Shown here one piece after another: positions 21,601 to 58,200 of a stretch of 64,000 nucleotides of DNA (position 1 is its first letter; every line of letters starts with the position of its first letter). The position numbers and the translations under genes are program-made. The stretch comes from Amoebophrya sp. A120 (lineage: Eukaryota; Protista; Dinoflagellata): assembly GCA_905178155.1 (NCBI GenBank), contig CAJINV010000001.1, forward strand, positions 9,817,865 through 9,881,864, written 5' to 3'. A model generated the notes under the pieces. That model saw only the letters and a program-made list of their open reading frames with translations. It was not told the origin of the DNA and ran no database searches.

Positions 21601-24600
21601 GGTCGTTCTGCATTCTGTTGAACTCCTCCTGGTGTTCCCGGAACACGCTTGGGTCGCCCAGCACCAGAAACCGGATCTCGCGCTTCTGCAGGTAGCTCTT
21701 ATGGATTGCAAATATGTCTGGGTCTGGAAGGATGCGAACTTGTGATGCGTGTTCCGAATCATACAAGAATCTGTGTTGCGTGACTTGCAATAAAAGTTGC
21801 CCCTTTCTTGCCATGCTGAGAGGGAATTTCTCATGCAGAACAGGCATTACCAAGGGGCATCAGAACCTGTGATGCTAGGGCCTGCATTCCAGAGCTGGCG
21901 GAGCCTGGAAAAACTGCATGACAAATCGTGCTCGGAATCTTCCAGACCCAGACATATTTGCATTTGATAGCTCTTCACGTTGTTCAACGTTTTCTGGCAC
22001 TCCAGGCCCAACTCCAAAGTCTCGTTCGCCAACGCAATGGTTTCCTCGTCACCCAGGCCCTCTGGCGGGAGCTCCGGCACGTCACACGACTCGAGGATCT
22101 CCTTCACGTGGCTGGTGGCGACCTTCTGGAGGTATTCCTTCGTGATGGAGGAAAGCACCACCTTTTTCTTCTGGTCGTAGCTGCACCGGACGTTATCCAA
22201 ATCGACCGTGGCCAACGTTTCGTCCGACTCCCAGGCGACCTTCATCTTCGTGGTGCTCTCCGTGACACCATCCTCCATACCGAGGTCCTGGACCAAGAAC
22301 GCACTTCGCCAGTCCTTGTCGTCGAGCACGAGCACCGCCTCGTACATGGAGACGCGAACCGCACCAAGTACTGGCACGGTCCGGGCGACCTCCTCCTCGG
22401 ACGGTGCCTTTGGAACTTCGGCAGGCTTCAAAAACGTGTTGGCTGCGTTGGAAACGGTCACGAAACCGGCCTTGCCGTCGGAGAGCGCTTGCACGTATAC
22501 TCGGACCTAAGAAGTTGATTTTTGTGAGAAGTGAATCTATCGATCATATGGAAACTCTGCCTCTGTCACGTACGCCAACAGAAGTTTTGGTTTAACAAAC
22601 GCAAACCATCATGCATAGCCGCGATGCAGTCCCTAGTAACCAAGTAAGCTAAGTACCATTGGTCTGCAGTTGACCGGGCTCAAATCCAGCATTCGGAAAA
22701 ATTCGTCCTTTCTTGCCCGTCGCACGGTCTTAATGGCCTTGAGTTCGGCACCGGTGGTGATAACCGTTTCGGAAACGCACTGGAGGGTGGTCACTTCCTG
22801 CAGCTGGCACCGCCCGTTTGTGAAGTACGTCACATGACCAATCTGCTCGGCCCCATTGGCATCAACTAACTTCACCTGTGTTGTTTGTGCGAGTGCCGAA
22901 CAATCGTTTTCTAAAAATTTTTCGGGATGACAAACTCTGGCACCATAGTACTTCTTCTATCTAAACGGCAAAAACAACATCCATTTCACATACGGAGAAC
23001 AACTTTTATGCTAAGTAGAGATCAATGCCGGACACAAAACTTTTCTTCTTCAGCAGATAATATCTTCCTCCAAGGTATTGATTTGTACCGCCATGCGGAC
23101 GCGGGACTTATCGCCGGGGGTGGCGTACTCCAGGGGTCCGTACATCTCCACGATGGTGCGATCCTCCAACGTGGGCCACTTCTGGGGGTCGTCGAGGTCA
23201 CTCGCCTCGGCAGTCAGACACAGGTCGGACAACAAACCCGAGGGTTCGTTGGACGACGCGGCGCCTGCCGAGGAGGACGGATGGCGGTACATAAAAAACT
23301 TTCGGTACGCGGTGGTGAACATCAGTTCGGAAATCTGGCCGCTGCGATTCGCCGAACCGACCGGACCCAGGGGGAGGTCCATCTCCTCGAAGGCCTCCTT
23401 CAAGTGAGATTGCATAATGGACACCTTCGCCGTGCCCGCGTTCGGGTCGGTGGCCGGGGGGAGCTCCACGCCCAGGTGCTTATCCAGATTGTTCTCCCCG
23501 AAGTAATCCGCGCGACGCTTCGTCCACTCGAGGAGCTTGTACCAGGAGACCTGATAATTTGATTTGTGCCATTTTGTTTGGCGTGATTCTTGCTAGGTCG
23601 TGGAGGACCAGATATATAACCATCGAGATCGAAAAAAACCAAATGCCAAGCTGAGTACACTGCAAAAGCAAGATGACGTTCTTACATTGACAAGAAGTAT
23701 CTTACCGTATTTGGCTTCTCCTCTTTGCCTCCGCCCTTAATGTTGACGACTTCTTTCCACAGCTCGTCCCCGGATTTTCCCTCCGCCTCCATGTATTTCA
23801 TCAGAATACCGGCAACACACAAGTTCCCCGGGATCTCCGCGGCGGCTTCGGGGCGCGCCAGGGCGGTTCCCATTTCTTTCTTCAAGATCCCTTCCAATTC
23901 TTCGATGCGCTGCCCCCAGCGATCGATCTCCGCGGACGTCTGCTGAATGGTGTCGCGCTTCTGCTTGAAGTCCTCGAAGGTGCGCTGCGCGCGCTCCAAG
24001 TGCGACTTCAGGGTGTCGAATTCCTCCTTAATGCGCTCCTTCTCCGCGCCCTTCTGGCGGAGTTCCTCGGTGCGCTGCAACACGTCCACGCACAGAGTCA
24101 CCTCAGAACCCAAATCCTGGATCAACTGCTTGTTCCACTTGGCACGACGCTCCTGGCGACGCTTCTGCGCCTCCTTCTGCTCTTGCTTTTTCCTGTATTA
24201 GGTGGTTCGGAAAAGGTTTCATTTCTCTTATGAAGTACAAGTTAGTACCCATGGAGAAGTACTCATGCGTAAGTAAGTCAATCAGGAACATGAACTACTT
24301 GCTCAAAAAAAGCTCAATATCTTTACCGCAAAGCCTCGGCCTGACGCGCCCGGTTTCCAATGTGAACCGCGAGGTTGCGGATCTTTTGCACTTCCGCCAG
24401 CAAGGTTGGGAACTTCGCCAAGCACTCCTCAATGCGTTTCTTCTTGTCCGCGAGGTTCAAAGGATCGGCCTGCTTTTCGTCGGAAACGCCCATGACGGCG
24501 TTGGACTGACGGAAGAAGTTGATCGCGGTCATCACCTCGGTCCGGCGACGGTGCATGGAATCCCGCCCCTCGGTGATTTTCTCCTCCGCCTTGACGGCCG

Positions 24601-26420
24601 CCTCGTGCGACACGTCCGCGGCCTCGATGGCCTCCTGCGGGGACAAGTGCTCGGCGATCTCCGAGGAGAGCAACGCGGACTGGTCTTTCAGGTGCTCCAC
24701 GCCGTTCTCCGCCTCGCCCAGGTCGTCCAACGACTTCTCGACCAGGTCGCCCACCATCTTGGACCACAAGTCGCGCTGGCGCTGGGACACCTTGTCGCTG
24801 AATTCCTGGGTCTCCTTCAACGCGGAGTCAAGCTTGTCCCGGGCCTCCCCAAGTTGCTGCCGCAAGGAATCCACGGTTTTCGAATTCATCTGAAAAATTG
24901 ATGATGTTTCAGATACTTGATCAAGTTCAAGTGTAAGGAGGTACTAGTACTTACAATATGGATGCAATTTCCAATTTCTCTGCAGGTCCAAAATCAACAG
25001 AAGACGATCATGGAACTCGAAATGCATAGGCATAGCGTGAAAATAGTCAATTTTCGTTCATTACACCGAATCCAAAATAATTGCATTTCCATCCATTCAT
25101 ACCAGCGCGCTCTGTTCCAGCTCCTGGATTTTGCGTGTGTGCAGCGTCATAGCGGATCCCAAGGACGCCTGGGCGGCTTTCAACCCCTTTTCGATTTCCG
25201 CAGAGAACCGAGCCAGGTCCGCGGGCTTCATCACGTCCATCGCAAACAACTGCCCGGCGGCCTGCGAGTCCTTGACCCGAATGAAGGACCGTTCCGCGTT
25301 GCTGGCGGCCAGCACCGACCCGTTCACGGACTCAGACAGTTTGCGTTCCTGACGCGTCTGTTCCATAACCTGCTTTCGCTTCTCCTCTTGCTCCAAGCGC
25401 TTCGCCTCGTTCATTTGTCGCTGAGCTTCCATCTGGTCGATGCTTCCAGGAGCGGAGTTGCTCGGGTTCACAATACGCGTCTGCGCCAGCTTCGTGGGTC
25501 CCGCCTGACCAGCCTGTGCCTGAAACCCGGCTCCCACACCTTGGGTTTGCCTGTAGAGTTGTTGTAGTCAAGTGGCATCACTACATGATGTAGTACTATT
25601 TAGTACTTTACTTCCGAAGAAGGTAAATTTGTATCTGGTAAAACGAGACAAGCAGGTCGTGAAAGATGCAGATGAATATACAACAAAAAAACATATATTT
25701 CTTTACTGTGCATTCGTGTAACCGCCTGGCGCGTTCCACGCACCGCCCTGGGCAGGTGGCGATCCCATCGGGGGCTGTGCACCGCCGCACTGCTGCTGCT
25801 GCTGCTGAGCCTGGGCACCGCCGAGGGGCGCCATGTTGGGGTTGTTCGGGTTCTGGTATGCTGGGGTGGTCTTCTGCATCTTGGTTGCGGCACCACCAAC
25901 GGCCTCACCGGGTCGCTTCTCCGCGCCAGTGCACTTGGACAGAGTCACCTGGGGTGATAAGGAAAAGCATGGATCGAAATCGAATCAAGAACGAAACCTA
26001 GTATAGGTACATTATCAATGCACAAGGTCGTGACAATGATTCACGTAGATACGACCAATGGTGGCGAGCAAGTCGCAAGCAACCGCGAGGACTAATACTT
26101 CTATTCAAGAATGAAACACTGCGTACCTTCTTGTTGACATCTCCGTGCCAGGGAACACGCCAGCCGGAATGCGGAGGCATGTTGGATGTGGCCGTGGACA
26201 TGGCCCACACGTTGCTGCCACCGACTTCCGGGGCCACCCACCAACCGCGCAGCTGCACGCCATCACGTTCATCCCAGTAGTAAATCATCACGCTCTGGTT
26301 GCCCGAGTCGATCTTCTTGAAGGTCGGCTTCCCATGGTTCACGCCCGGGGCCCGCATATACGACCCGTTCAAGTCGAGGAGCTCCCCCTCGTACCCTTCG
26401 AATTTAATTTCGCCCGCCAT
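18685..26420 (-). CDS. Large coiled-coil protein with a Trp-rich N-terminal domain and several SH3-like modules, more than 12 exons
   Basis: N-terminal NHGKPTF...YYWDERDG...GWWVAPEVGG..VW...PP.SGWRVPW resembles a domain I recall from dinoflagellate hypothetical proteins. Repeated modules of the form RR.K.GE.V...G.P....VR.....DGK.GW.T. Exons join in frame through GT-AG introns plus the element at 21700-21969. The structure between 20300 and 21500 is unresolved. Confidence 0.8.
21700..21969. mobile_element. Introner-like TIR element, copy 1 (270 bp, TSD GCTCT)
   Basis: Left end TATGGATTGCAAATATGTCTGGGTCTGGAAG; right end CTTCCAGACCCAGACATATTTGCATTTGATA. GCTCT at 21695-21699 and 21970-21974. Removal joins ...LNNVKS|YLQKREIRF in frame. 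Confidence 0.92.
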
Positions 26421-27752
26421 TGTCGTTTAAGTTGACAGTTTTTTGATTTTTCTTGGAAAAAATAGAACAAGAACTCAAGAATGACAGGAGTAAAGAAAGA
26501 GACTTACTACCCAGGTTCAAAAAAAAAAAGATGCAGGAGCAAATTTGACCCTAAAAAATGTTGTTGTGAGAATGAGTTTTTTTGAGCGCGGATCAAGCCC
26601 GTCGCATCAGAAAGGTCACTTCTTTTTTTCAGAATGATCAAAAAACTTTTATAGCAATGGCAAAGGATCGACGTTCGTTAAATTCGGCTGTAAAGTGCAG
26701 GCACTCGACCTGGTAAGGCGTTTTGGGTGGAAAAATTGATCTGAAAAGTCCCAGATCGAAAATAAAAAAATCACGGTAGAATGACGGATCTTGGTTTGTT
26801 ATTCTTAACGACTTTTCTTATAGATACGAAATTGCGCTTCTTTGCGTTCTTGCTTATGCTGTAAACGGAAAGATCTCTTCGTTCGCCTCGTTTTGCTATC
26901 TGCTTGAGGAGCGGAGATAAAAATACTTTCGAAAGCATGTACTTTTGACTCGATCTGTCTGTCTGGACACGAAATTCGCCGGGGGTGCGATGGGGAAAAA
27001 GGCTAGATGAAAAATCAATGGAGCTGTCAATGATTTGAGTTGGATGTTTGTGTTAGTTGCATTGGCAATTCGGATTTTGACGTCACAGAGGAACAAGCGA
27101 TATGATCTACGTATTTGCTGGAGGATCTTCTTCTGTTTCGAAACCAATTTGAAAAAAATGCTCGTTTATTTTGAAGTACCACTTGAAATTCCATGATCTC
27201 AACCAAATGAACGAGGACCGACACTTGATCGCATGAATAATCTCTTGCTGCAGGTGGAACATTTATTCCGGTTTTCTGCTAAGCACCACCACGGCACGGG
27301 CTAGCAGGGCATAGGGGCCTAATTTGTTTACTTTTGCTTTCTGTCTCTGTGCTGGGTTCTACGACTTCTGCTTGAGCACTCAAGAGGGACTAATTTCCAT
27401 GTACGAGGAGCGCAAGCATGGTCGCGCAAGAAGGCACAACACTTGTACACGTTGGCTATTGGGGTTAAGACCTTCTTTTTTTCTTCTGACTGTGTCACTA
27501 GCAAATGAGACTTTGCCAAGAGGAACAGAATGGAGTTGAAATTAGCTCTCGCAATTAAATTTTTGTATCGGGCAGTAGTGCATTCTAACAAGACCTAGAA
27601 CTTGGACAACTTGAACTTCCAGAAGTTTCAAAAGCTGTCGCGAGGACCACAACATCATAGTCAAATGCACGAAACCGTAGATAAAACGAAAGCCACCGTA
27701 GCAGCGGCGCGCCTGCTGTTGAAACACGACTCCAACTTTTGCTGCGCCGGGG

Positions 27753-30054
27753 CTACGCACAGATACTGTTGAAATTCTGCTGTGCGGCGTGCCACTTATT
27801 TTGCGGGGCCACCGCGTAGGGGTGCGCTGGGCCGCAGAGAATCGCGAGCTGGCACTGCGATTTCCGGTACATATTGATGATTTCCGCGTAGCGCGACCCC
27901 GAATTCCGATGGTTTTTCCGCGTCGCCGCGAGCACCGCCGCCCCGTGGGACGAGGCGCCCATGAGCTTCTTATAGTTCGCCGCTTGCTGGATCTGCTTCT
28001 GCAGGTCGTCGGCGAGCTCTTCCAGCCCCCAGGCCCACACGAACGTGGGGCGCGGGTAGACGCGCGCGTGGTACTGGACCTTACGTTGGGCGTGGATCAT
28101 CGCCACGTCGTTGTCCCTCTCCCGGTAGTACTCCCACAGCAAATGGTCGCACACAAACACGCACCAGTGGTTCTCGTGGAAAAAATCCAAACTTGCGTTG
28201 TACACGAGCTCCACGTCGTTCGGGTTGTTTTTGTCCAGCTGCTCGATCCGAGCCACGTACTCCGGCTCTAGGGACAGGCACTGCTCCTTTTCCGCGTCCT
28301 TGCACGCCTCCGCGCACACGTCGCACGCGGTGAGCTGGGGCGTGCTCCCGTTCTCGACGAAGTAGTGCGCCCCGCTGCGGCATTTCAGACACCGGAAGCC
28401 GCGGCACACGTCCACGCGGAGATTGCAGCGGCTGCAGGAACAGCTGTTTTGTTTTAGTGATTCGTGCTTCCGATTCGTTTGATGCTCTTTTGAATTTTAT
28501 TTCCACTTTTTTATTATTTGTTTCGCGAGCGATGTTAACGCTACAAGCCATGAAAATCTAGATGATGATAAACGGAACGAGACTGACTAGGGTGTAAAAA
28601 TGAAAACGGAATCTAGCACGGGATAATTATACCGGAATTTCCAATTTTCCAGTTTCTTCCGTCTGACATTCGTTGACTTCAGCAGGTCTTCGTCCTGTAA
28701 ATACGATATCGTCACTTCCGCTCCTGGCTGGAGTGTGACGCGCGCTCGCAAGACGAACGACTCATCGTCTCCGTAGGTCCAACAGCAGGTGGGATCGCAG
28801 CCGTGCGCGGCCATACTGATCCGGTTGTAGAGCACCAACCCGTCCTCGCTGTGGTGTCCGAAGCTGTTGTACCGCCACGCGTTGACAAGGTTCTGCAGCA
28901 CGCGCCCCGTGAGTTGGGCGCGGCCCGGGGGAAGCGACAAGCTGGGGACGGAGTCGAGCAGTTCCAATATTCGAATCACGTCTCGTGAAGTTTCTTCATT
29001 TTCCCCATCCGGGACAAATTTGTCGAGCACGACCTGTTTTTGAAGAGAGAAGTTGGATGAACCCAATTTCAGTTTCTTCATTATGATTCCAGCAACCCGA
29101 AGATGCGGAGTACCACGATCGCTCAATGCGCAACAAACTGAAGCACTTATTTACAAGTGGTCTTGTCTTTACTACGGAAATGCAAATGCGGCTGGCAGAA
29201 GCAGGGCGCGCGTACGACGTGTACAAAAGCGATGGGCGGCAGCTGCATGCTTCAAGTCTCGCTGTTGTACTGCCCTCACGCAGACGGCGCGGCCCTGACA
29301 CAGTAAGCAGAAGCACAGAATTACGTTTCATAAATCCGCTTCACCATGAATATTTGCACTGTCGTTGGATCAATTTGAGTCCGGCGATGAAGCAGAAACA
29401 CAAGAACAATTTTACTTTCACGTCTGCGTCCTCCAGGGTAAACCAGGTGAGCACGGCTGCGTAGTGAAAGCTGGTGGTTCCTAGCTGGAAGGCTTCTTTC
29501 TCATTTTCCTTCACCAAGGCGTCCCAAAAACCTCGATTTTTCGATGGTATTGCCACGAGTGTGGGCTTCTCGATGAAGAGCACCGATCCAGACTTTACGT
29601 AGTGTCGGGTGAAAAGGCACCTCCCCTTGCCGGGGAGGTCCTCCACGAAGCTCGAATCTTCGATCTGCTGCCAGGACGATGGTCGACTGTCGTCCGTGAC
29701 CTGCGCAATGTGAGGATGCATTCTGCTCCTGTTTGTTCTACTGCTTCGACCAACAAAGGAAAAAAGTATTAAAGTCTGTTCAGTGCAGAATAACATGATC
29801 TTCGCAGAGTGGACTGTACTAAGTTCGACGCCTTCCAGACTGTAATGCTGCTATACCTTGACAACGTCTTTGATATCGACCACTCGGTCGTTCGTGTCAC
29901 CGTCGTCCCATGCGACAGTGACTTTTGTGTCGTCGATTCGTTCCACCACAGCCAGGTACCAGCACCCGTTGCCTGGCCACCTGGCGTGGACACGATCCCC
30001 CATCTGCAGCGCTTTCCGCTGCGAAGAAGACGAAGAGCCGGACATCGGAGACAT
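27753..30054 (-). CDS. Tudor-like + SET domain (SMYD-type) lysine methyltransferase, 4 exons
   Basis: Tudor-like GDRVHARWPGNGCWYLAVV...VAWDDGD. SET motifs GKGRCLF, YNRISMAAHGCDPTC and EVTISYL. Post-SET F.CSCSRC is formed across a GT-AG intron, followed by a helical C-terminal region. Confidence 0.88.
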
Positions 30055-31692
30055 CGAAATAAACTTTCGTCGTCGGCGGTGGTCAACGTCTTCTGTTCAT
30101 CGGTTCAGACAGAAGCAGAACTTTGGTCTTTGCGAGTAGTGCAGTTGTTTGTACTTCTCGGCACAACTCGATGAAGAAATTATAGGTCGTACAAGATCTC
30201 GATATAATTCTAGCACCTTTGCTTCTCGAGCGAGTGCGAGTAGAAGTAGATATCCTCCTCGGTAAAATAAGTAACTAACGAGGTCGGCAAGAAAATGCAC
30301 GGAGCGAGGCAACCGTGCTGGCGTTCCTGCCGATTTGTGTCGTAACAAACGAACTCTTCTGTGCAGCCCCGGGGCGGAAGAAGAGCTCAAAAAGTCGCGA
30401 AAGCGCAATCACCGAAAGTGGCTGTGGCGGTAAGTGCGCAATACTTGGGCGAAGTGGTCATCTCGGAAAGGTTGAAGACGTTGTGTTTGTTCTTCGTGCC
30501 GAGACATGCTACTTTCTAAATCTATGTCCTTGTAGATAGTAGAGATACACATAAATCGCAGATAAATCTGATAGATAATTACACGGACCGGTGAAAAAAC
30601 GAATCCGAACGAGCAAGTCCGCAGCGAATCGAAATCATTTGACGTCGGTACGGAGATGCTGTCTGGAAAGGCTTTCCGTTGCTTCTCCGAATACTTCGAA
30701 AAATCTTCGTGGTTTGCTGTACCAACACACGAGAAGCGGGTGATAGTCTTTCAGAGGACACAACGCAGTACTTGTTAATACTTGTCCAAAGTTGTTTGAT
30801 TCGTATATGCTACTGATATGGCTATTTTGTAGTGAAAATAAAATGCGTCTAAAGACAATAGTGCACGACTCAAGCGGTGTATTTACGTGTGCTGTCTACA
30901 TCCCAAACAGTTTCTGTCGTGCAACGGCAACTCTTGATAGGAGCTACAGTTTCAGAAATTCCGTAAGGATGAGAAGTGTTTTGCGTGTTGAGATAAGATG
31001 AACAAGATGCCACTACGTCTACAAGAAAAATTGGTTCAGAGGTATCCTACGGCTCTAGTCACAGCAAAGGCTCTACGTTCCACTTAGACTATACACACAG
31101 TGCAGCCTAGTGGCTGCACACGTACTCCAGCTGACACGACCTGTCGATGTTTGAGTTTGGCAAAGAGAATTGGATTTTGTTCATGTGATGAATGTTGAAA
31201 ATGACGTAACATGGACAGTACGTTCTCAATGCTGACAACTTCACATGGTGTTGACGATGAAAGTAGCACATCGGACTGCGTTTTGCCTCCACTGCAAGTG
31301 CTTCGGCGCAACGCTAATCAATCGGAAGGTCAATGTGAAGATCGCTAAATACATTATACATAAAGATCCTCACTAAATTAGTTCTAGCCTGAAAATGGAA
31401 CACGCGACGCTGCTGTGACGAAGGAGGAGGTCACACTCTCTGCTCCTGCTCTTTTCTTTCACTGACACATCCATGCGATACAGTACCTGGTCGCATTTAC
31501 TTATTATAGCCACAGTGCGTAAAAGCACAGCTATGGAATCGTTGAAAACTGAGCATGTAATCGATGGTGCTGCTACGGATTTAATCCTTCTGCTGCAGTT
31601 CAGAGGTGCGCTTGCCGACAGAGTACGTACTGTGTGGGAGTTCATTTCGCTTCTGGGCCCTAATTTTCAACATCTCTTTCAAGCAGTACTCA

Positions 31693-35818: not shown

Positions 35819-35845
35819 GACGGCCGACGCGAAGAGTTGCGGAGG

Positions 35846-35866
35846 ATCATCATCATCATCATCATC
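35846..35866. repeat. (ATC)7 microsatellite
   Basis: Seven tandem ATC units read directly from the sequence. Confidence 0.9.
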
Positions 35867-36091
35867 TTCAACCAAGAACGACCTAGCTGCCTTCGCAGTT
35901 GATGGAGGAACACATCTGAGCTTGTTGGAGAACCTAACTGACGCCGAGGCAGGTGACGAACTTTAGCTTGCTTGTGTTATATTACGCGACAGCTGTGCTC
36001 AAAACTATGGGCGAATCGACTTACAGTTAATGATCTTGCCAGTTCTTCACACCACTTTCACTTTGCGCACCGTTTTTTTTCACGTGAAAAA

Positions 36092-38130: not shown

Positions 38131-41100
38131 CTACTTGTTTTTGATTTTCAACCACGCATCGCGCGTGATGATTTCCCAGTCTCCGAGCTCGGAATTGAAG
38201 TGGTAGTGCTTCGCGTAGCCCTGTCGGTACTTTCGGCCCTTTCTCTTCGCATACCGCGACGCCCACTGCACTTGGATCAATCTCGCCGCGAGCAAGCGCG
38301 CACGCGCCACGCCGAAGATCGCATACCTGTGAAAAACGAAAACGTGATTGGAAAGCTGAAGTAAGTGATTCCTTCGAACTGGATGCAGATTAAACTTTCC
38401 AGGTACCTCTACACCCAGCAGCAGGAGCAGCAGAACCAGTAGCAGAAGAACAACGCACATTGATTCGCACTATATCAAAAATCAGTACTTGAGTTTGCTT
38501 CTGCGCACCCATCTCTGTATGGTGCACACTGCGTAGGCCTCGACCTCCTGCTTCCACTGGGTGGGCTGCATGAGCTTCTGGAACTCAACGTAGTTCTTGA
38601 AGCGCACGTTCTTTTTGTTGTCGCTGAATCGCAATCGGCTCGAACTTGGAAACCATTTCTCCAAGAAGAACATGGCCATGGCGAAGAGCTTATCCAGAGC
38701 GTGCACGTGGATGGAGCTGGAAGCCTGAAACGTGGTTTCGTCGTCCTCAACCACAGGGAGGGAGAACATCATGACGACAGAGACGACCCCGTGGTAGAGC
38801 AGCGGCCACAGAAAAACTTTGCCCTCGCCGTCCAAGTCCACCCCGTGGTGGAAGCGGCGCCCGCACGTGCGTCGTGGCTTCTCAAACATTTTCCAGTGCT
38901 TTTCCTGCACGCACTCGCCGCAGAGACCGACCATACCTTGAGAGATTTTTTGCAAGATGTTGCCCCTTTTCACGCAGCAAGAGATCACTTTGAAAATGAC
39001 ACCAGCACTGGCGGGCATTTTTGTATTTTCAAATTGGAAAATCACCTTAATCCAAACACAATTACCGAAATCCCTCGTCAGCAACCCGCCGTGCAGATCC
39101 ACGTCTATTCTCTGCAATGACGGCGGTTTGTTTGCGGTTTCGTGGACCAAGACTATCCTGATTTCGTTCGCAGAGAACATCTGCGACATGCGGTCGCGCA
39201 ACACTCGGAACAGGTCCTTTATCGAGTGGCACTTCTGGAACAGGTCTTCCGCTGCTTCCAGCAGGATGTCTTTTCGCAAACTGGTCTGCACGTTCGCCCG
39301 GTGCTTCTGGCACTTGTTGACCACGTCCACCGTGGAGTAGCCGATCACGTGCAACAAAAACTCGTCAAACGGGTCGAAACAGCTGCTCTGCGTGTTGATC
39401 TTGTTGCACGCCTCAATCACGGCCCGGACTTTCCCCTGCGTGCGGATAGGCGCGCAGAGAACCGCTTTGGTTCGGTACCCAGTGACTTTGTCCATCTCGC
39501 GGTTGAACGTTACATCCGCGTACGCGTCGGCGATGTTCACGGACGCTTGTGACTTGAACCTGTGGACGCATAATTCAATCACAATCACGACACCCTCGCT
39601 CAAATTCTAGTAACCACATTGATGCAAAAACAAAGTTTCTGTCCGACAAAACCATAAACGGCAAGAAATCAACAAAAGTTTCAAAAATCAGAGTACGCTC
39701 GCGAGACGTAGCTGCCGTCGTTGAGGTCTTTTATCACCAGTTTCGTTCCGGTTTTCGTCTCGGCGTTCACCCAGGCGGTGTTCTTTGCGTGGTTGATGTA
39801 CCAACACCTGGCAAAGTCGCACTCTAGAACGCGGCAGATCACAAGATTTATCGAGCTCAACGCCACGTCCTGGTCGCGGAACTTGTTCATAGACTGAAGA
39901 TCCTTCATCAGCTGCGTCATCATGCTGCCTTTTCGATGGTGGAGAACGAACTCGCGAGCAAGGTATTTGATCGCGCGGTACCTGTGCAGGTGCGGCGGGG
40001 GCTTGCGAGGACGCATTTTTCTTATTCTACGAATGAAATGCATGACCGCAACGCTGAAACTTGTCAAAGAAAGCAAAGAAAGTCAGGCAGTACTATACCT
40101 TTCCTCACTCTTCTCGTTGAGGTACATCTCGTTGAAGATGTCTACTGGCTCCTTGCCGCAGTTGTGTGTGAGCCTGGTCAAAAACTCGATGGCTTTCTTG
40201 TTCGACTCGTCCGCCGGCTCGGACGCAAGTCGCGCCTCCGTCGAGATTAACCTCCACACCGGGTCGTGGTGCTGTGGGTTGGGCAGCCCGGTCAGCGCCT
40301 GGTCCTCTGCGGTCTCCAGTGCCTCGTACAACGCCGCGGACTCCGCAGCTGACTCCGTGCTGGGCGGTACGCGGTTAGTCCCCGACCGCCAAGTTTTCTG
40401 CGTTTCGAGGTGAAGGGCTTTCCACTTCACCTCGTACAGCTTCTCCTCTTTCAAGGTTGACTCCAACTGCGTTTGGAGCCTGCTCGACTCCTTCGCTAAT
40501 TTGCAAAGCGTGTGCTTCATACTTTGGACCGCGCGCTCCTCCTTACCGAACTTCTGCGGCGGGACGGTGTTCAGGGTTTTCAGAAACTTCGCGACGGTCG
40601 TGTTTACCAGTAAGAACTGCTGCCTTAGTCGTTCACTTGTCACCTTATTTTCCGCGGCGACCTCCTTCTGCTCGATAAGTTCCTCCTCCAAATGCTGCTT
40701 TCCGGAAAGTAAACTTTGGTTCTCACCCGCGGCCGCGCGGATGAGTTTCTCTGACTGTTCGGTCTTTCGAGTTTTCGAGGTGAGGCCCTTGTTCAGCCTG
40801 GCGAGCTCTTTCTGAACCTGAAATTTTTTGTTGTGTGGTGTCTTTTGGCTGTTGAAAAAATGATTCTAAGTAACCTCAGCGAACTTCAAAATCAAACACT
40901 ATCACTACATCCGCTATGTATTCGAAAATACAGAAAATTCCTCCTGCTCCGCCCGATACTGTGGCCTGAGATCCTCTTGTAGCCTTTTCTGCCCCGGGGC
41001 GTCCAAGGTCGGCAGGTAAAACGCGAGCAGCTTCTTTTTCACTATGTCCACCGCGGGCCAGTTTTTTCGCAGCTGCTCCTTGAGTAAGTCTTGGTAATTC

Positions 41101-49000: not shown

Positions 49001-52000
49001 GCGCACATCTGTCCGCAACTCGCCAGCTCCTCAATCTGCTGGTCATTGCACTTCAGCGTCAGTGTGCCGGTCCAGGGACTGGGGCAGGTGTACCCTCGCG
49101 TCTCATCGTGGTCTTGCCGGTATGTGAGCACCATGGCGTCATTACTGACGATCATGGTGGGCGCGCAAAATTGGCCGCACCGCCCGATCACGCTCACTTG
49201 CCCGTTGAAACCTGGTAGTGTTGGCATAGGGAGATTGTGATCAGTGTTTGATGATGTCGACAGGGCATGATACGATTGAAAATTTGCCGCGGGAAATCAC
49301 GACTAAATCAACTTCATGGAATTCAAAAAAAAGCCATCCATCGACATCAAACAAAAAATCGAATAGTACAGACAACTTCCAACTTCCCTGCGAAATTCGG
49401 GTTCCCCCCAGCGGAACAGGTCACATTTGTTCGGCTGTCGTGCTGCAGTTGCGTTCCGAGGTAAATGTTGAGCCCGTTGGAAACGAGGTACTCGACATTG
49501 CAGTGCCGCATGCACACGTCACCGGCTTTCCGAGACAGCACACCGTTACGGCAACTCAGCTCTACGTTGCCGGTCCACTGCCCACTGGGACACTGCACCT
49601 TCACCGAGTGCCAATCATCGAGGTAGCCGTGGTACATCTTCAGCGTGTGCCCTCCCGTGGCAGCCTCGATCGTGCCCGCAGGGCAGTTAAACCTTTTATT
49701 TTGACCAAAGAAATTTCAATACACATGAATCTTCACGTGAAAGTACGTAGAAAGCACCAGCCGAATCTGTCTTGAAGACAACTGACAGCATCCGCAAGAT
49801 GAAAGTGCACAAAGAAACAAGCAAATCAGATTTTAATTAATATTACTTGCAGTTTTCGCTGAGCGCCGCAATAATTCCGTTGTCGCAGCTGACCTTGATG
49901 ACTCCGTAGGTTAATGGAGAGGGCTTACACGGCACATCTAGAATTGTCCCGTGCTTAAAAAACACGCCTTCCATAAACTGGGTCTGCGACGCAAGCACCA
50001 GCGTGTCGTTCATGTAGACCCTGCTCGGATTGGTCAGCCACTGTGGCTCCGACAAGTCAAAGACCGCTTGCAGCTGCACGTCCTGCTGTGTGGTGTTCTG
50101 CGCGGGGCCGGACCGGTCCACGTTCATCGTGTGCTGGCTGGAGCAGTGCAGAAAGCAACCGGTGCCGGGTGTTGGCTGTTCCTGCACCTGGCCGTCGACG
50201 CAGATGAGGTCCAGCTTGCCGACGTACCCAAACGGACAGTCGAACAAGGGCACCTTCTGTCGGTGCTTCATGAAGTTGTACGGCACGATGCCACCACCGA
50301 TGTTCAAGGCGTACATCCCCGGAGCGCAGCTGGCGCCGCAGTTTGGACTCACCACCAGGATCGACCGGTCGGACTGGCAGAGCAGCTCGATGTTCGCTTT
50401 CGGGCAGTTCGGGTCAAAGGGACAAGGGAGCCGTCTCCTCGTCGCGATGGGGGTCACTGGGTACGCGATGGGGCTCAAACCCGGGCGGTAAATCTGATAG
50501 CGAGTGGTTTATTTCAGTTCGACTTCCTGTATGTCTGTGTGCGTCATCTCCCTCGTGCCGCCGAGTCTATTTTCTAATGCTGTTGTTACTCATCTTTATC
50601 AGACTATCGTTCATCTAAACTCGTCGCCTCAGCATGCAAGAAAAACTCAAGTTTACCAGCTGTCCACTAGGACATGGCTCCAGGCACATCCCCTCGACGC
50701 TTTGGCTGTTCGCTCCTGCGCAGGTAATGGTCACCTGTCCAGTGTAGGGCGAGGGGCAGGTCTCCACGAAACTCTGGCCGTACACCATGGTGGTATCCCA
50801 GGTGACGTCTACTCCGCCCGATGCTATTCTCCCCGGTGGACATTCGCCATACGTCACGCGGTAACACTCGGACCCGCAAGCCCCATCGGAGCCGTAGACG
50901 ACGTCCCCCTGCCCCTTGACTATCGCCCAGTTGCTGAGCAGGTGCATACCGTCTTGTTTCAGGTGAATGATGCACCGCTTGGAGCAGTGATAGAAGCTGT
51001 ACCCGAGGCAATTCAGTCCAGCGCCCTGCCAGCAGGAATCACGACACTCAAGGTGAGAGGCAACTTGCTTACCGCGGCCGCGAACGTACCTGTTGTAGTT
51101 GCAATTTTGTTTTTTTCTTTGCCGTCGCCGCTTTGAGTTTCCAAAAAAACTCGAATTTTATGTTCCTAGATAACAGCTGAAGATCGTCATTTCCGTACCT
51201 GAGTGACTTGTCTGTGCATTCACCCTTTTCGCCGATCTTCTCGAAGCGCTCTCGCTTCGGCACATTGGCGTCTGACAATGCCGCGATGTCTACACTGCTC
51301 TTGGACATACAGGGTTGGCAGATTTCTCGCCACAGCTCAGCATGGTTGTTCGGACATTGGGATGACGCCTGAGTTTAATATTTTTTGCCGGATCAGAAAC
51401 AGACAGAAAGGAACAACCAAGCTCGACATTTATCCTCAAAGAACTTTCGCAATTTGAAGACGTCTCTCAAATCAATTACTCCAAATACCTGCCCCGTGGC
51501 GTGCCAGGCTTCGCCCCAGACACAAAGCTCGCAATTACAGCCTGCGTCGGGAGTTGCTACGAGCTGCATCTCTGCGGCAATTCGCGAAGCATACTTGCAA
51601 GCGTCGTCGAGTGTGCAAACGCCCTGCCACGTGGTTCCCATTGCGAAGTGCTTCGTGAGACATTCGCGAAACAGCGGGAGCTGCACCGGAAAGAGATCCA
51701 GCACCGGTTTGAAAATCAGGTTTTCGTGGTAGCACAAACACTGATCCGATTGCCCAGTGAAGGTCTGCTTCAAGTAGGTCTGCAACTTCCTCTGTGTGAC
51801 CAGTCGCGTCGACAGACTTCTCTCGGTCTCCTCCACGGTCAGCGCTGGTGCTTCCGTCCTGACTACCAGCTCGCCGCCGGGACTTGTCAAGGAAGGCGTA
51901 TTGGTTCTGGTTGCACTCCTCTGCAGACTTCGTCGCTTCGCTGAACCGTTGTTTGGGGAAAGTCGCCGCAGGTCTCCTCTTCGATCCGCAGCGATCTGGC

Positions 52001-54488
52001 GCACAAGCCCAGCGAGCACTCCGCGCAGTCTCGGATCGAGGTCCTCCTCGACGCTCTTTTGCAGAACGGCATGAGGACTCGTCTCCGGCACCGGACCCTC
52101 GACTAGTGTTCGCCGGCAACCGGAGGCCGTGGAGTTTGCCGCCGAGTCGTCGATACACTCTTCTGTGAAGCCCATAGACCGCTTCCACGCGTTCACTTGC
52201 GCGCCGGTGAGCTGAAGATTTCGCTTCAGGTATAAAGGCTTGGGTAACGGCTCCGCCTTTATTCTACTCTTTTTCGGTTTTAGGCCTACTTTCTCCAGGA
52301 TCTCCTCATACAGTCTCGGAGTTAGCTTCTTTTTACTTTTCCCGAGTGCTTCCAGTTCCCGGTCTAATCGTGACCGCACGTCTTGCTCAAACTTCACGAC
52401 CGCGCCAGGATCTGCGCTAGTCAAAGCTGGTGGTAGGTCCAGCGCGAGGGCCCCGGTCTCAGTGTAGGCTTGTTTTTCTTTCTTGCCTATACCGAGAAGT
52501 CGCTGCTTCGCAAAGTTTCGCTTCGACTGCCTCCTGGCCTTGTCTCGCTCCTGTTCTAGATTGCGGTTCCAAATCTCGACCTCTTGCTCCGTTGGAGGTC
52601 TGTGGCTGCTCGAAAAAGCGGCCCGGCGGAGTGAATCAAGAAAGTCCGCGCCTATTCTTCTCCAAGATTTGAGACTCTCCAGCATGCTGGCGTCCTCAGG
52701 CGGCGCTGGGTGGTCGCGATCTGTTCTCCCTCCGCTGTTCGCCGCAACTGAAGCGGTGAAATCAGAATGGTCCTCGACGTCGCTTGATGATCTAGTACTT
52801 TCTCTCATTAGCGGCGTCTGCTTGTGCCACGACTGCCACCTCGCCATCGCGTCATGCGCATTTGCTGCGGAAGACCGAGGCATGCGAAAGTAGGAATCCA
52901 AAGACTCCGCCGCGCACTGTTCAGGGTTAGTGCACGTCGAACTTTCTGGACGTTCTTTTATCAGATTCTGCTCCCCCGCGGCGTCTATGTAGTAGTCCGC
53001 TAAATTCAGTTGGTTGCGACTCAGACAATCCGACCGGCCGCTGCATTCGCTGCACACTGTCTTCCCGTAGAAACAGTCGGACCGGTCGTGGTCGGAGGAA
53101 GATGGAGGAGACGAGCCCCTTGATGGGCCCTCGGGTTTATTTTCCGAGGAGATCATACTAGTAGTCGATATTGTTGATACCACTACGCTGCCACTCCCAG
53201 GTCCATCCGGTGGCTCGCCTGCGAGCACAGTCGTCTGTTCTCGAATAGTGGTCCAGATGTCGCCAGGTTTGTTTCCTGACACCAGCCGTGTAGTTTCTGT
53301 TATGGTCGTGGTCTTCGCGGCATTTGCTGCTGTAGGCGTCCCGCCCTCGGGTGTATCGGCCGTGGCGAGCGAGTATTCGAGCAGCTTTTGTACGCGCTTT
53401 TTGTCCTTCGCTAACGCACTCTCGCGATCGAGCACGAAGACTCCCGGCTCGACCTGCCGAACCGCTATGTCGGGCGGTAGTCCGTGGTGAAACGCAGAAC
53501 GGTAGATCTCCGTGTTTATCTTACTTGCGTGAACAGGATCAGAATGATCCTTTTTGCTTGCTGTAATAGCACTGCGATCCTGTTCTTTCGTCAACGTTGA
53601 AGTCGAAACCGAGACGGGAGGAAGAGGGAGCCCAAGGTTCGGAGAGGAGGACGCTGGTCCGAACAGAGCTGCCGGCGAAAACAGATCTCTGTCCTCTAAG
53701 ATCCTGGTGTCCTGATCTCGCTCGTTCGACGACGCCATGAACTTGATGTCCACCGACTTTTGTGTGGTTGGCCGCCCGTCGGTGCCGTATACCGCCGCTT
53801 CGCCGTTGCGCTCCAGGATCTCGTCCCCGTCGCCGAACTCCTCGCCGGGCTTGAAGCTGGTAACGGTCTCGGAGAACTTTTCCTCCCGTGGTCGAGTTAA
53901 TGTGCTGTATTCGACTTTGTCCTCCGCATTTTCCAACACACGTGGCGCCTCTCTTCCCTCGTGCGACCGCTCCAGTCTGGTTACGTCCTCCACGATGTAT
54001 TCCACCCCCTTTTCGTCGAACAACCGATTCAGTTTTTTCGTCCGCGGGTTGTACAAGGCGAGCAATTTCCCCGTCTTCACATCCCGCGCCAACTCCTTCC
54101 CGCTTTCGTCGAACACCCGGGGCGGCGGGGGCCTGGCCGGTGGGTACGTGAAGGTTTTGGTCGACGTGGTCGGCGGCGGGACATCTTCGCGCTCTTCCTC
54201 GGGCGGCGCCGGGTTCAGCCGTCGTGCGTACTTCACGCCATTTATCCCCGTGGGCTTCGGATCCGGAGCTCGAGAAGGATTTGTACTGATCTTTTTGGTA
54301 TTCGCTGGGTTTATCCCTTTGGGGCGCGGCTCCCCCAACGACGAGGCAGTCCATCCTCGCTGCTGCGAAGATGTTGCTCCTGCTTCGGCTTGCGATTTGT
54401 AATCGGTGTGCTCCCTCTTCCCAGCTGAAGACGAGGAAGCCGAGCTCGCGCCCACAACCACTCCAGCGATTATCACCGACTTCTTCAT
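46012..54488 (-). CDS. Giant type I membrane/surface protein with many ~55-aa Cys-rich repeats
   Basis: Signal-like MKKSVIIAGVVVGA and a ~1000-aa low-complexity first exon. Then repeated C..G...H......C.....G.....C.(D/N)G......G.C units, a TM segment WASAAGLFSIVILAYVYY and a basic cytoplasmic tail. Introns checked are GT-AG. Confidence 0.8.
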
Positions 54489-55251
54489 CCAAGACCTTCT
54501 TGAGCCTGGACTTGAAGATCAGTTCTGCTCATCGCCGAGTCGACGACAATGAATCGTGCAACTTGTTTTCCAAACGTGCTCAATGGGCATGCAATTATGA
54601 AAAAAAACACGTAATACTGGATGGGGTAGTGCCTATCGGGGAAGCAAGAGGTGGGGGAGGGGAACTAGTACAAGAACTTAAGCAGTTCCTAAAACTAGAG
54701 TAGGTCGTCATGGGTGTAGGAGGGAAATGATCCTGCAAAATCTACGAAAGTATTGACGATGTCTACGGAATGCTTCTGGCTTTAAGATTGCAAGCGCTCT
54801 CTACTGCGAATACTCCTCTCATGATGTCTCGCTGTCGCTCTCTTAAGACACATTGGAACGCTATAAAGACCGAATCCAAAGCTCTTTACTTTTTTCCACA
54901 CTCTAATTCTTTGCCTCTCGAAGTTGCTATCTAGCTCTATCGACAGCGCTCCGCGAAGCGCAATCAGCGACAACTCACTCTCATAACGGAATGTCGAGAA
55001 TGTCGAGCTGTGCGACAGCACGACCGCTACTGCAATAGCGAATACTTTCTACGGGTTGCGAACTCAATACACTTTGCTTTTCTTCGAAATAACCGCTGCG
55101 ATTGTTCGAGTATGTTGAATCTATGTCGTAATTGGGATGTCTCGTTGTGTGGTTCGGTGGAAATGCGGGTGCGTATAATTCTGATTCTCGAATCTTCCAT
55201 GATGCTAGTTTACACATTGATGGCCCAATGATCTTGCAAGCACGAGGATTC

Positions 55252-58200
55252 TTAATCCGCGTGTGGCCGTCGGTATCCGGAGGCGCCCGTACCGTGCACG
55301 CGCCTCCTCTCCCCGCCCCCGGCAAGGCGCTCTTGCTCCTTGTTCACCACATATGTGACGCCACCAACGACCGCGCCGCCCAGGAGCCCAAGGTATCAAA
55401 TGTAAAAATGTCTGGGGCTGGAAACTTGTGATGCTGGGTGGCGTCTCATGATGAGGCAACAAATGCTGGCTCAGCATGACAAGTTTCTGAGCTTCTAGGT
55501 GTTGCCTATTCTGCATGACAAACTGCGTTTCTGCATCACAGAAAAATGGAGGTCTTGGGTAACGTGCATGACAGATTTAAGAATCATGCCAGACAAGCAT
55601 GACAAACATGCATTCTTCCAGACCCAGACACTTTTGCACTTGATACAAGGTAGGTTGTGACGACACTGATGCAGGAAACAGCGACCTGTTGAAGATTTAT
55701 TCGAAAAAAACTTATATGACAAAACAATCAGGAAGAAGCACAAGGACAAGCATCTTCAATGTGGAAAGTGGAAAGTACCAATCCAAAAAAGGCGGTGCCA
55801 CTGACGAAGTTCTCGCCGTAGTTGTATCTAGCGCGGGCGGTCGCTCCGCGACCGCCGGAAAGGTATGGAGTAGGCAAGAAAACGATGGGCCCGATTTCCT
55901 ACTAGGAAGGTTGCAGTCCTCGCGGGGAAGGGGAGGGGATTCTCCTGGGGGCGAAAACTCTACAGGCGCAGGGCTTCTCCGTCCGCCTGAGCCCCCTAGA
56001 GAAAGACAAAGGCGTGGCAGCAGCCCGCCGCAGGCCCCAGGAGCAGGAGAAGCGCCGGGAAACAGAAAGAACACCCGGGGCGAGCCCAACGTGGGAGGGA
56101 ACGAGCCCTCCAGGGTGTTCCCAATTTGCGAGCATCCCCCCAAGGTGCGAGCCTTAAGGGCGGCTGCTCGTCATTCTAGCTACGCCCCGCTCTATTTCTA
56201 GTTACGCCTCCAAGGCGGTGGGGCTGCTTTCGACGAAGCCCACAGGGCCGCAGCTGCGGAAGCTGCGCGACAAAAAACCTGGCCAGCCAGGCAGGTGCAG
56301 CCAGCACAGGGAGACTGGGCGCGCTGTGTGTGGTAACCATTTAGGGCAACGAGAGAAGGCGCCGCTTCTCTGTGCAGGGCGGCGGGGCCATCCGCACGAA
56401 GAGGGGCCTCCCCCGCGAGGCAAAGCCACGGGGTAGCCTAAACAAAGCGCAAAACCATCGTCCGCGGCACCGTGGCAAGGCCGAAGGCAATTCGCCTGCA
56501 CCTGCGGGCTCAGCAGCACGCGCCGCGCCACCCGTCCTCAGTACTGATTCGCCATCCTACGGCTGCGCCCCCTTTTCCCGGGAACGAGCGCCACGCCTCG
56601 CGCTACCACACAGGCATGGGTTGCTCGGCGCTAGTTTCTCCACAGGGGGCAAGGGAACCAAGCAACGCGGGCAGGCTGTTTGGCGCAAGCTCGGGGCGAA
56701 CCGGCCCGCGAGGCAGTTTTCTTTTTCTACTAGTGAGCTTTCTCCTAGTAAACTCTCTACTAGTAGCCTTACTAGTAGTTTTTTTGCTTGCTTGTCACGA
56801 TAAGATTACTAGCAGCGCAGCCTACTAGTAAAATTTTCGAATTTTCCTTACTAGTATAGATACCAATCCAAAAAAGGCGGTGCCACTGACGAAGTTCTCG
56901 CCGTAGTTGTAGACAAGGGCACCGTATCAAGTGCAAAAATGTCTGGGTCTGGAAGAATGCGCGATTTGTCATGCTGCTTTTCTATGACCCATGAGGTCGG
57001 GAATGCAGGACCTAGCATGAGAGATTCTGTGCGATCTTTCTCATGCCTATCCTGCATGAGAAACTCCCTCCCGACTTGGTCAAAACTGGACGACTTTTGG
57101 TAATCATGCAATACAGATTTTTGCATGCTTCAGGTTTAGCATGACAAGTTGCAATCTTCCAGACCCAGACACTTTTACATTTCTTACACCGACTTGCCAC
57201 AGAAAAATGAACATCGCGGACATCATCCCGACGGTGAGATTCGTAAGGTACCTGCAAGTAATTTTTTTCACGGTAAAGTGAATCTGTCAAAAAGCTGCAG
57301 TGGCAAACCGATTTAGCCTCGATATCGATTCGACAAAAAATGCCGAAACTTGAACTTGTGAAATGTGTCGAAAAAAATTCTGTACTGAAAGATCAGCTGG
57401 AGGATGACTTGCACGAATGTTCTTTCCCTGTCGCCCGGCAACGCCATGAACAATGCGTCCATCATGGTCCACCGTTTTGCGGTCTCCTTCCCTTGCTCCC
57501 ATGCGTGCCAAAATCGTTCGCGCACTTCCTGGACTCCGATGGTCGACCATATCCCGACCGTTTGCCTGGCTTCGCGAATCAGGCCGTCGCGTTTTGTCTC
57601 TACCTGTTTTGACGGCACGCCAACACATATCAAGAAGAACGTTGTAGAAATGAAATGGAGAGTGTAACCTAACGTGCTTTGTTAGGTCATCGTATTCGGT
57701 CTCCAGAAATCGAAACAGTGTAGAAGATTTCTCAAAAATATACCTCGTAGAGCTGCGCCTGTGCTAAATCTCTCTTCGTCAACATCTTTTGGCAGGTTGC
57801 GTCGCACGACCAGAACCAGCCCTTCGCGTTATAATATCGCTGGTCGGCCTCGCGGAATAGTCGTCTTGCCTGACTTATGGATTGCAAAAATGTCTGGGTC
57901 TGGAAGATTGCAACTTGTCATGCTAATTCCGAATAATGCAAAAATCTGTGTTGCATGAGTGCCAAAAGCTGTCCACTTTCGACCAAGTTGGGAGGGAGTT
58001 TCTCATGCAGGATAGGCATAGCAGAGACCTCACAGACTCTGTCATGCTAGGTCCCGCATTCCAGACCTCAGGGGTCATGGAAAACCTGCATGACAAGTTT
58101 GGCATTCTTCCAGACCCAGACATTTTTACATTTGATATGACTTAACTCCCGGTCGGTTACGTGGTGGGCGTGCGACATGGCTTCCTGGTAAGTTTCCATT

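Follow-up and report, generated by a model that had tools for sequence, protein, structure and literature searches.

We identified four related inverted-repeat elements that interrupt coding exons in a stretch of 64 kb of the Amoebophrya sp. A120 genome (hereafter, the window). They are almost certainly introners of the type known in this strain, taken out at the RNA level. Farhat et al. (2021) have already described introns of this kind in Amoebophrya sp. A120. Beyond what was published, the family described here has a target-site duplication (TSD) fixed at 5 bp, 83 different duplication sequences and both orientations, with no GT or AG bias and no signature of pairing. The first-pass annotation had read the elements as a MITE-derived intron family that is removed precisely, and our results support this reading. 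All four are copies of one small element with inverted repeats, which is probably a non-autonomous DNA transposon.

Four elements in the exons of two genes

The features are as follows (no strand is assigned to the elements and duplications):

Host gene A: 18685..26420, minus strand; 12 exons, 1525 aa, 10 GT-AG introns plus copy 1
Copy 1: 21700..21969; 270 bp, terminal inverted repeats (TIRs) of about 31 bp; in an exon of gene A, after codon 1084
TSD of copy 1: 21695..21699; repeated at 21970-21974
Host gene B: 55252..58388, minus strand; 7 exons, 297 aa, 3 GT-AG introns plus copies 2-4
Copy 2: 55394..55645; 252 bp, divergent subfamily; in gene B, codon 253
TSD of copy 2: 55389..55393; repeated at 55646-55650
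Copy 3: 56925..57186; 262 bp; in gene B, codon 221
TSD of copy 3: 56920..56924; repeated at 57187-57191
Copy 4: 57876..58137; 262 bp; in gene B, codon 84
TSD of copy 4: 57871..57875; repeated at 58138-58142

The first-pass annotation had given these positions, the lengths (270, 252, 262 and 262 bp), TA...TA ends, TIRs of about 31 bp and four exact 5-bp flanking repeats. All were found again, and the two TIRs of an element agree at 25-27 of their 30 outermost positions. All four elements lie in coding exons, as claimed, and both host genes are on the minus strand. Copies 2 and 3 are oriented opposite to copies 1 and 4 (2:2 in the window). The earlier statement that no intergenic or intronic copies were seen also stands: an nhmmer search of the 64 kb with a profile of the four copies found none beyond these. 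A generic scan for segments of 80-1500 bp that are flanked by a 5-bp repeat and whose ends match in inverted orientation at no fewer than 15/20 positions returned exactly these four elements, and 10 block shuffles gave 0-1 matches each (2 in total). In fold predictions the TIRs pair in copies 4 and 2 (z of -8.3 and -6.2), and the outermost bases of copy 4 are left unpaired. An Rfam search of positions 54800-58700 gave 0 matches.

The spliced models of genes A and B are letter-for-letter identical to the proteins CAD7926308.1 and CAD7926316.1 of Amoebophrya sp. A120, and the public gene models of A120 are already without the four element segments. The orthologues in A25 (81% and 57% identity for the two host genes) are ungapped at all four element positions, bearing out the empty sites expected from the first reading. 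The three sites of gene B are ungapped in seven homologues, and that of gene A in its A25 orthologue. A Pfam search matched neither gene B nor its A25 orthologue, and the ESM Atlas yielded no more than a lead that fell short of its bar.

The segments taken out, i.e., the element and one TSD, measure 275, 257, 267 and 267 nt for copies 1-4. If kept, copies 1 and 2 would shift the reading frame and copies 3 and 4 would introduce in-frame stops. Exact excision gives neither GT-AG nor GC-AG borders at any of the 31 possible cut placements, so that the elements lack the GT/GC...AG ends of canonical U2 introns. The other introns that we traced are canonical, with GT-AG in 15/15 (10 in gene A, 3 in gene B and 2 in a neighbouring gene). 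These observations leave the corresponding claims of the first-pass annotation unchanged. Adjoining bases match and extend the junction repeats beyond the TSD (8, 7, 5 and 7 nt for copies 1-4, counting these matches), and the cut position is therefore ambiguous over more than 5 nt. Copies 2 and 3 have no AG available at any cut placement, yet they are removed exactly.

Joints in transcripts and filled sites in DNA-like contigs

The transcript evidence consists of cDNA-derived contigs from two runs of one sample (X3 and X5), whose RNA status is guessed and not on record. Such contigs lose minor isoforms, and an exact joint represents the main assembled product. Transcripts of both genes exist and are without the elements. 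Copy 1 is skipped by a joint from 21692 to 21968 (275 nt; depth of 107 in X3 and 62.4 in X5), copy 3 by a joint from 56919 to 57187 and copy 4 by a joint from 57870 to 58138 (267 nt each, in both X3 and X5). For copy 2, we infer the removal of 257 nt from the pieces of X3 contig 9 (157 = 61+58+38), and this removal also fits the identity of the gene B model with the public A120 protein. The exon pieces of the X3 and X5 contigs differ from the window by 0 letters, and the same contigs contain ordinary GT-AG joints. Two raw RNA runs carrying the same species label (X10 and X11) had no coverage of the host exons.

The joints correspond to the element and one TSD, not to nearby GT-AG sites. Removal through such ordinary sites, at the loss of a few codons, would have been feasible on paper: in-frame GT/GC-AG alternatives occur near all four elements (42 listed), and in copies 1 and 4 one of them would take just 6 nt more. 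Against it, the observed joints are exact and the homologues are ungapped. This route is refuted as the main one as far as contigs can tell, which leaves room for minor use, and we give it next to no probability.

Reverse transcriptase jumping across hairpins between direct repeats is a known artefact of cDNA. Joints made in this way, over mRNAs that in reality retain the elements, would be favoured by the geometry of the copies (hairpin z of -6 to -8, junction repeats of 5-8 nt), and all our transcript data are cDNA-derived contigs. However, retention would introduce frameshifts or stops in intact conserved genes, with three breaks in one gene of 297 aa, and the joined form is the sole full-length contig, at a depth equal to that of the entire mRNA. 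Moreover, the copies are 5-15% diverged from the nearest relatives found, and the genes have thus been intact with the elements for some time. We consider such an artefact very unlikely.

The elements might also be excised at the DNA level for part of the life cycle, or another allele might lack them, with transcripts coming from empty templates. Exact removal leaving one duplication has the look of an empty site, contigs lose rare variants, and the DNA-like run X1 comes from a different sample than X3 and X5. Yet X1 has a depth of 0 at the displayed joints of copies 3 and 4, and its long unbroken contigs run into the element ends at a single-copy depth of around 26; the first X1 record would begin at 21944, within copy 1. 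Transcription from empty templates would further require that all four sites, spread over two genes, be empty while the templates matched the window everywhere else (0 differences), which makes it highly improbable. The X1 data also indicate that the family is repeated in the genome: 13,964 X1 contigs were placed on a 6-kb stretch, and the summed depth per bin, which is not a copy number, reached 3.4e5 over the elements vs around 26 beside them.

Features of the family and published introners

We found 113 further paired copies with a TIR pattern among the matches listed, a number that is not a genome-wide count. The family is thus multi-copy, as first proposed, and among these matches it also occurs in coding frames elsewhere. 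An exact, flush 5-bp duplication borders 93 of the 113 listed copies (chance expectation: 29 in 20000), with 83 different sequences among these 93; in the other listed copies the duplication has one mismatch (8/113) or is of another kind (12/113). Most listed copies (107/113) are 251-283 bp long. The traits of MITEs are present: the elements are short and non-coding, with TIRs, a fixed 5-bp TSD and many dispersed copies. The longest stop-free frames of the six listed copies above 300 bp span 82-151 aa, and no transposase was found among the matches listed.

A codon model was callable for just 28 or 22 of the 93 copies, and gave the wrong strand for copy 2 of the window. With this model, the frames of the two flanks agreed after taking out the element and one TSD in 24 of the 28 callable copies. 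A weak test based on stop-free length in the 93 copies had precise removal as best in 27, tied in 28 and worse in 38. Both orientations relative to the exon occur (11:9 in 20 confident cases of the codon model). On the coding strand of 43 cases, neither possible AG (17 vs 15) nor possible GT (21 vs 21) was in excess.

The ends of the elements are near-invariant at positions outside the search pattern (T1 in 186, A2 in 185 and T3 in 184 of 186), and position 6 is likewise. A preference for TA beside the duplication, suggested by three of the four window copies, was dropped because only 4/186 sides had it in the larger set. The TIRs bear no trace of selection to pair as RNA: G-U and A-C mismatches on the transcribed strand were equally frequent (45:45 in 47 copies), and the likeness of the TIRs within a copy (27.43/31) was close to that of shuffled partners (27.25/31), being reached by 192/2000 shuffles.

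The accessible text of Farhat et al. 2021 (PMC7789003) describes the A120 introner elements as non-canonical introns that carry inverted as well as direct repeats. Their ends carry the motif TAT-N7-AAA (TAT, 7 nt and at least 3 A), their direct repeats of 3-5 nt overlap the exon/intron boundaries, and these introns have a mean length of 240 nt, a hairpin, RNA support and no transposase. The end motif is present in 7/8 window ends and in 203/226 other ends among the matches listed; its AAA part was in our search pattern, whereas its TAT part was not. The window elements share with these introners the organism (by protein identity), the end motif, the direct repeats, the RNA support and the non-GT-AG sites. 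They differ in having TIRs of about 31 bp and a fixed 5-bp duplication, where that text gives 8-20 nt for the inverted-repeat motifs and direct repeats that vary. It counts 1,954 introner families in A120 and presents families as strain-specific (A25 vs A120), whereas the family of the window is also present in a second assembly. Of two proteins of this second assembly that were searched, both matched themselves and one also an A25 protein; neither matched an A120 protein. Neither viral contigs nor prokaryote genomes matched the TIR pattern (0 matches each).

Gozashti et al. 2025 (PMC12130899) report 58 introner families in A120 and class A120 families as TIR DNA transposons. Within the 32 of these 58 rows that we could consult, fam12, fam100, fam124 and fam293 resemble the window family in length (250-280 bp) and TIRs (27-72 bp); they are of "unknown" superfamily and have many non-canonical sites. 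The automatic TSD calls given there range from 2 to 6, compared with 5 in the window family. The TIR core was not found in 12 of the 14 supplement files of that study, in which family rows carry no sequences, nor in the supplement text of PMC7789003, which gives no family sequences (the logos are pictures).

Possible routes of removal

The removed piece always includes 5 nt of host sequence. At least one cut would therefore fall in sequence that the element does not supply and be found by its distance from the TIR, which we regard as quite probable. In the mechanism that we propose, the elements, which sit in exons between 5-bp duplications, would have spread with the help of a transposase supplied in trans. 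The cut sites would be measured from the element's own ends. By analogy only, TIRs pairing in the RNA could attract an enzyme that cuts it, together with an RNA ligase, for which we see about even chances. The element and exactly one duplication would then be cut out by a nuclease-and-ligase step, not by the GT-AG chemistry of the spliceosome. The whole chain, from TIR element to exact loss with one TSD, end-measured cuts, nuclease and ligase, may equally well be right or wrong.

The analogy is with SOS splicing in C. elegans and human cells, where, according to the main text of PMC12779559, TIRs in the mRNA trigger transposon removal dependent on RTCB. That process requires TIR base pairing, AKAP17A, CAAP1 and RTCB, and it shares with the window elements inverted terminal repeats in mRNA and removal without GT-AG. 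In contrast, it uses many sites and leaves indels, whereas the assembled product of the window family is scarless. The terms dinoflagellate, euglen- and introner occur 0 times in the same main text. The imprecision of SOS splicing in animals speaks against an SOS-like route for removal that is exact in the assembled product, and guidance by RNA pairing is opposed by the negative pairing tests and the unpaired outermost bases predicted for copy 4. We only tentatively suggest a second, non-spliceosomal system of mRNA splicing in Amoebophrya. It would resemble SOS splicing but leave no scar: it would read transposon ends, measure one 5-nt duplication off in arbitrary sequence, cut and religate.

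A changed spliceosome of the U2 type, freed from the need for GT and AG, reading TIR signals and possibly aided by the hairpin, would produce the same exact removal, and is a serious possibility that we place somewhat below even. The accessible text of PMC7789003 reports nearly all spliceosomal proteins and the U2, U4, U5 and U6 snRNAs in A120, with U1 undetected. Farhat et al. and, in its available passages, a 2024 review (PMC11282704) favour a changed spliceosome for Amoebophrya, and the review reads Fritillaria in the same way. The near-invariant terminal TAT and position 6 resemble a sequence signal, and an RNA-pairing signature is lacking. Independence from orientation fits this explanation equally well because the element ends are symmetric. 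On the other hand, at least one boundary lies in arbitrary host sequence (83 duplications in 93 listed copies), there is no preference for AG or GT on the coding strand, copies 2 and 3 are exactly removed without AG at any placement, and the other introns of the same transcripts are strictly GT-AG.

The same passages of PMC11282704 allow comparison with other non-canonical introns. Those of euglenids and Fritillaria resemble the window family in their TIRs, TSD-like junction repeats and probable MITE origin. However, the junctions of euglenid introns follow a pyrimidine|purine consensus, and the introns of Fritillaria, which use the spliceosome, end in AG-AC or AG-AT, whereas the window family has no junction consensus. 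Euglenid TIR introns are released as circles, not lariats. In the open-access literature, judged by title and the start of the abstract, we found no paper settling the mechanism of removal in Amoebophrya.

These results raise the question of how tens of thousands of non-GT-AG introns are removed exactly. The family provides a clean test case, with its fixed 5-bp duplication, arbitrary junctions, both orientations and ordinary introns alongside in the same transcripts. The cut site, which the 2021 paper did not fix, can be mapped with copies that have a one-base difference between their two duplications (8/113 listed). If a second splicing system exists, it could allow a MITE family to fill exons regardless of orientation, and in several Amoebophrya-like genomes. 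If the catalyst is a nuclease and a ligase, nuclear mRNA would have a second splicing route, linking the introners of protists to SOS splicing.

Exact removal of four exonic elements

The first-pass annotation had proposed that four terminal-inverted-repeat (TIR) elements lie in coding exons, each between 5-bp target duplications, and are removed precisely as introns; this observation is real and was correctly read.

Window 18685-26420, minus strand: gene A, host of copy 1
Window 55252-58388, minus strand: gene B, host of copies 2-4
Window 21700-21969: copy 1, 270 bp
Window 55394-55645: copy 2, 252 bp
Window 56925-57186: copy 3, 262 bp
Window 57876-58137: copy 4, 262 bp

Coordinates and duplications were given correctly (the repeats are exact), as were the inverted ends, which match at 25-27 of 30 positions. 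The interiors are 68-86% alike, and copies 2 and 3 are oriented opposite to copies 1 and 4. A generic scan of the window for TIRs with 5-bp repeats returned precisely these four (10 shuffles gave two hits in all), and a profile search of the window found no fifth copy.

Spliced transcript contigs from one sample (X3 and X5) join the exons after removal of exactly the element plus one repeat. At copy 1 the joint (21692 to 21968) skips 275 nt, with contig depths of 107 and 62.4 in X3 and X5, respectively. At copies 3 and 4 the joints (56919 to 57187 and 57870 to 58138) skip 267 nt each in X3 and X5. In the exon pieces listed, zero other letters differ. The removal of copy 2 was obtained by arithmetic: outside its listed pieces X3 contig 9 has 157 letters, and for these to be the sum 61+58+38 exactly 257 nt must be removed. 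The RNA nature of X3 and X5 is only a guess, yet they skip ordinary introns exactly, and the precision of removal is known at contig level. The raw RNA runs X10 and X11 give no coverage of the host exons. Jumps of the reverse transcriptase are a familiar artefact, and are unlikely to have produced these joints, since an mRNA keeping the elements would break the frames of two conserved genes. Loss of the elements from the DNA is also an improbable origin: in the DNA-like run X1, depth is 0 at the two element joints displayed, long single-copy contigs continue into the element ends, and the start of a 33,472-nt contig would fall inside copy 1.

Chance matches stretch the junction repeats of copies 1-4 to 8, 7, 5 and 7 nt, and the cuts can be placed in 31 equivalent ways. 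Not one of these is GT-AG or GC-AG, in agreement with the non-canonical ends claimed earlier, and copies 2 and 3 lack AG at any placement. Splicing at nearby GT-AG sites, the alternative raised by the annotation, is unlikely: there are at least 42 in-frame canonical choices and none coincides with the joints seen. The other traced introns are canonical as described (15 of 15 GT-AG). Non-canonical introns thus make up 4 of the 19 traced in the window, below the 65% of RNA-supported introns given genome-wide for A120 (averaging 240 nt) in the available part of Farhat et al. 2021 (PMC7789003). Copies 1 and 2 lie 33 kb apart (window 21970-55388), a distance bridged by a single continuous X1 contig; this continuity and the low share make the region look poor in introners.

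Host genes and an insertion in gene B

Genes A and B are both encoded on the minus strand. Removing the elements with one repeat restores the frame, as proposed, to 297 aa (gene B) and 1525 aa (gene A), and their retention has the expected effects, i.e., frameshifts in copies 1 and 2, stops in copies 3 and 4. The spliced models equal, letter for letter, CAD7926316.1 (gene B) and CAD7926308.1 (gene A) of Amoebophrya sp. A120; hence, the public gene models already count all four segments as introns. Orthologues show empty sites: in the related strain A25, the gene B orthologue (81% identical) is ungapped at three sites and that of gene A (57% identical) has no gap at the site of copy 1. Six further gene B homologues (39-57% identical) are also ungapped across all three sites (8 of 9 protein matches were aligned, a 155-aa fragment being left out).

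The gene B product is a conserved protein of 297 aa with hydrophobic stretches and homologues 39-81% identical; it matched no Pfam family. Gene A has two 3' forms at window 20299-21514. Contigs of both X3 and X5 have this GT-AG intron of 1216 nt spliced out, but an X5 contig of similar depth is unspliced over 20655-21544, with a stop a few codons past the donor; this form would encode a protein about 380 aa shorter.

Other features of the window are:

Window 55827-56860: insertion, 1034 bp, 61% GC, 4-bp inverted ends
Window 55776-55826 and 56861-56911: identical 51-nt repeats either side of the insertion
Window 38482-39606, minus strand: open frame whose match to a GAF domain exceeds the Pfam cut-off

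Each 51-nt repeat reproduces the final 48 nt of an exon of gene B together with the donor. The insertion falls within the GT-AG intron 55686-56863, so the gene B protein is unaffected. Its X1 depth (130-610 vs 26) suggests several copies, and the insertion may be a mobile element whose target duplication is unusually long; it matched nothing in Rfam or in the fetched metagenome loci.

The family outside the window

In X1, summed contig depth is about ten thousand times higher over the elements than over their flanks, a sum of depths and not a copy number, which we read only as a sign of a large family. The TIR pattern matched at least 161 stretches in metagenome contigs, and all 77 locus names among the matches listed carry the prefix of a second assembly, JACKZZ01. 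It had no matches in viral and prokaryote collections. From 158 loci we obtained 113 distinct paired copies whose flanks were long enough; the length is 251-283 bp in 107 of them. The 5-bp duplication is exact and flush in 93 (29 in 20000 by chance), has one mismatch in eight and is neither in 12. The 93 exact duplications comprise 83 different sequences, without strong base preference.

With a codon model trained on genes A and B, both flanks were callable in 28 (60 nt) or 22 (90 nt) of these 93. Flank frames agree after removal of the element and one duplication in 24 of 28 and 20 of 22, respectively, and a same-strand shifted frame occurred in 0 and 1 cases. A cruder and weak stop-free test gave 27 better, 28 tied and 38 worse. 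At locus L020, a copy interrupts a gene, and the break corresponds exactly to residue 312 of the A25 homologue. Exonic orientation of the further copies is 11:9. Among 43 called copies there is no coding-strand excess of possible AG (17 vs 15) or GT (21 vs 21), and GT-AG is possible at one cut in 5 vs 2. Six copies exceed 300 bp; their longest frame is at most 151 aa.

Identity between the window copies and the copies nearest to them in the metagenome loci is 85-95%, and those copies are similarly alike among themselves (median 88%). JACKZZ01 has up to seven matches per 8 kb, and elements account for about 11% of the DNA fetched there, a sample selected for their presence. Two JACKZZ01 proteins had no A120 counterpart in our searches. 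JACKZZ01 may represent a different species that has the family too, contrary to published strain specificity. Element-like contigs with varied flanks also occur in an estuary metagenome (X9). X10 reads match an element-like end at window 57886-57960 (90-95% identity, different interior). Almost all of these reads are unspliced and derive from a single locus, and it seems that another strain with the same species label carries the family or a relative.

Cutting, joining and published systems

Exonic insertion with a 5-bp duplication and exact loss in transcript contigs occur in either orientation and at any target sequence. Because 5 nt of the host always leave with the element, one cut or both must fall in consensus-free sequence from outside the element. 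Such a cut is likely placed by its distance from the TIR; the element ends would guide cutting, with ligation to follow. We give roughly even chances to such end-guided cutting and ligation by a putative catalyst. The closest chemistry described, in the accessible part of PMC12779559, is SOS splicing, but it is imprecise. A changed spliceosome as the putative catalyst is a possibility we hold at somewhat below even. For A120, the available part of PMC7789003 has U1 snRNA not found and leaves the intron border position undefined. Its introner end motif (TAT, seven variable bases, at least three A) fits 7 of the 8 ends in the window and 203 of the 226 ends elsewhere. Although our search pattern did not include the terminal TAT, these three bases hardly vary, which fits a transposase or a splicing signal alike. 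In folds of two copies the TIRs pair (z of -8.3 and -6.2), as expected of any TIR element. Selection on RNA pairing was detected neither by mismatches (G-U vs A-C, 45:45) nor by within-copy TIR likeness (equalled by 192 of 2000 shuffles).

The part of PMC7789003 at hand counts 29,850 repeated non-canonical introns in A120, in 1,954 families with direct repeats of 3-5 nt. A120 TIR DNA transposon families of this size, of unknown superfamily, appear in Gozashti et al. 2025 (PMC12130899), compared here by description only through 32 of the 58 rows on A120 in supplement file 8. Introns are mostly canonical in strains Kv and AT5 (PMC12005148, in part), and those of euglenids and Fritillaria are summarised in section 6 of PMC11282704.

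The phenomenon is therefore already known as a kind, and as individual introns through the public gene models. Our additions are incremental: the fixed 5-bp duplication, the independence of target and orientation, the family's occurrence in a second assembly, and a means of locating the cut. In eight copies (L152, L074, L037, L049, L064, L001, L020 and L026) the two duplications are not identical but differ at a single base, and matching RNA would show which base is kept and thus the position of the cut. The identity of the catalyst of removal is the point that could raise the significance of the finding.
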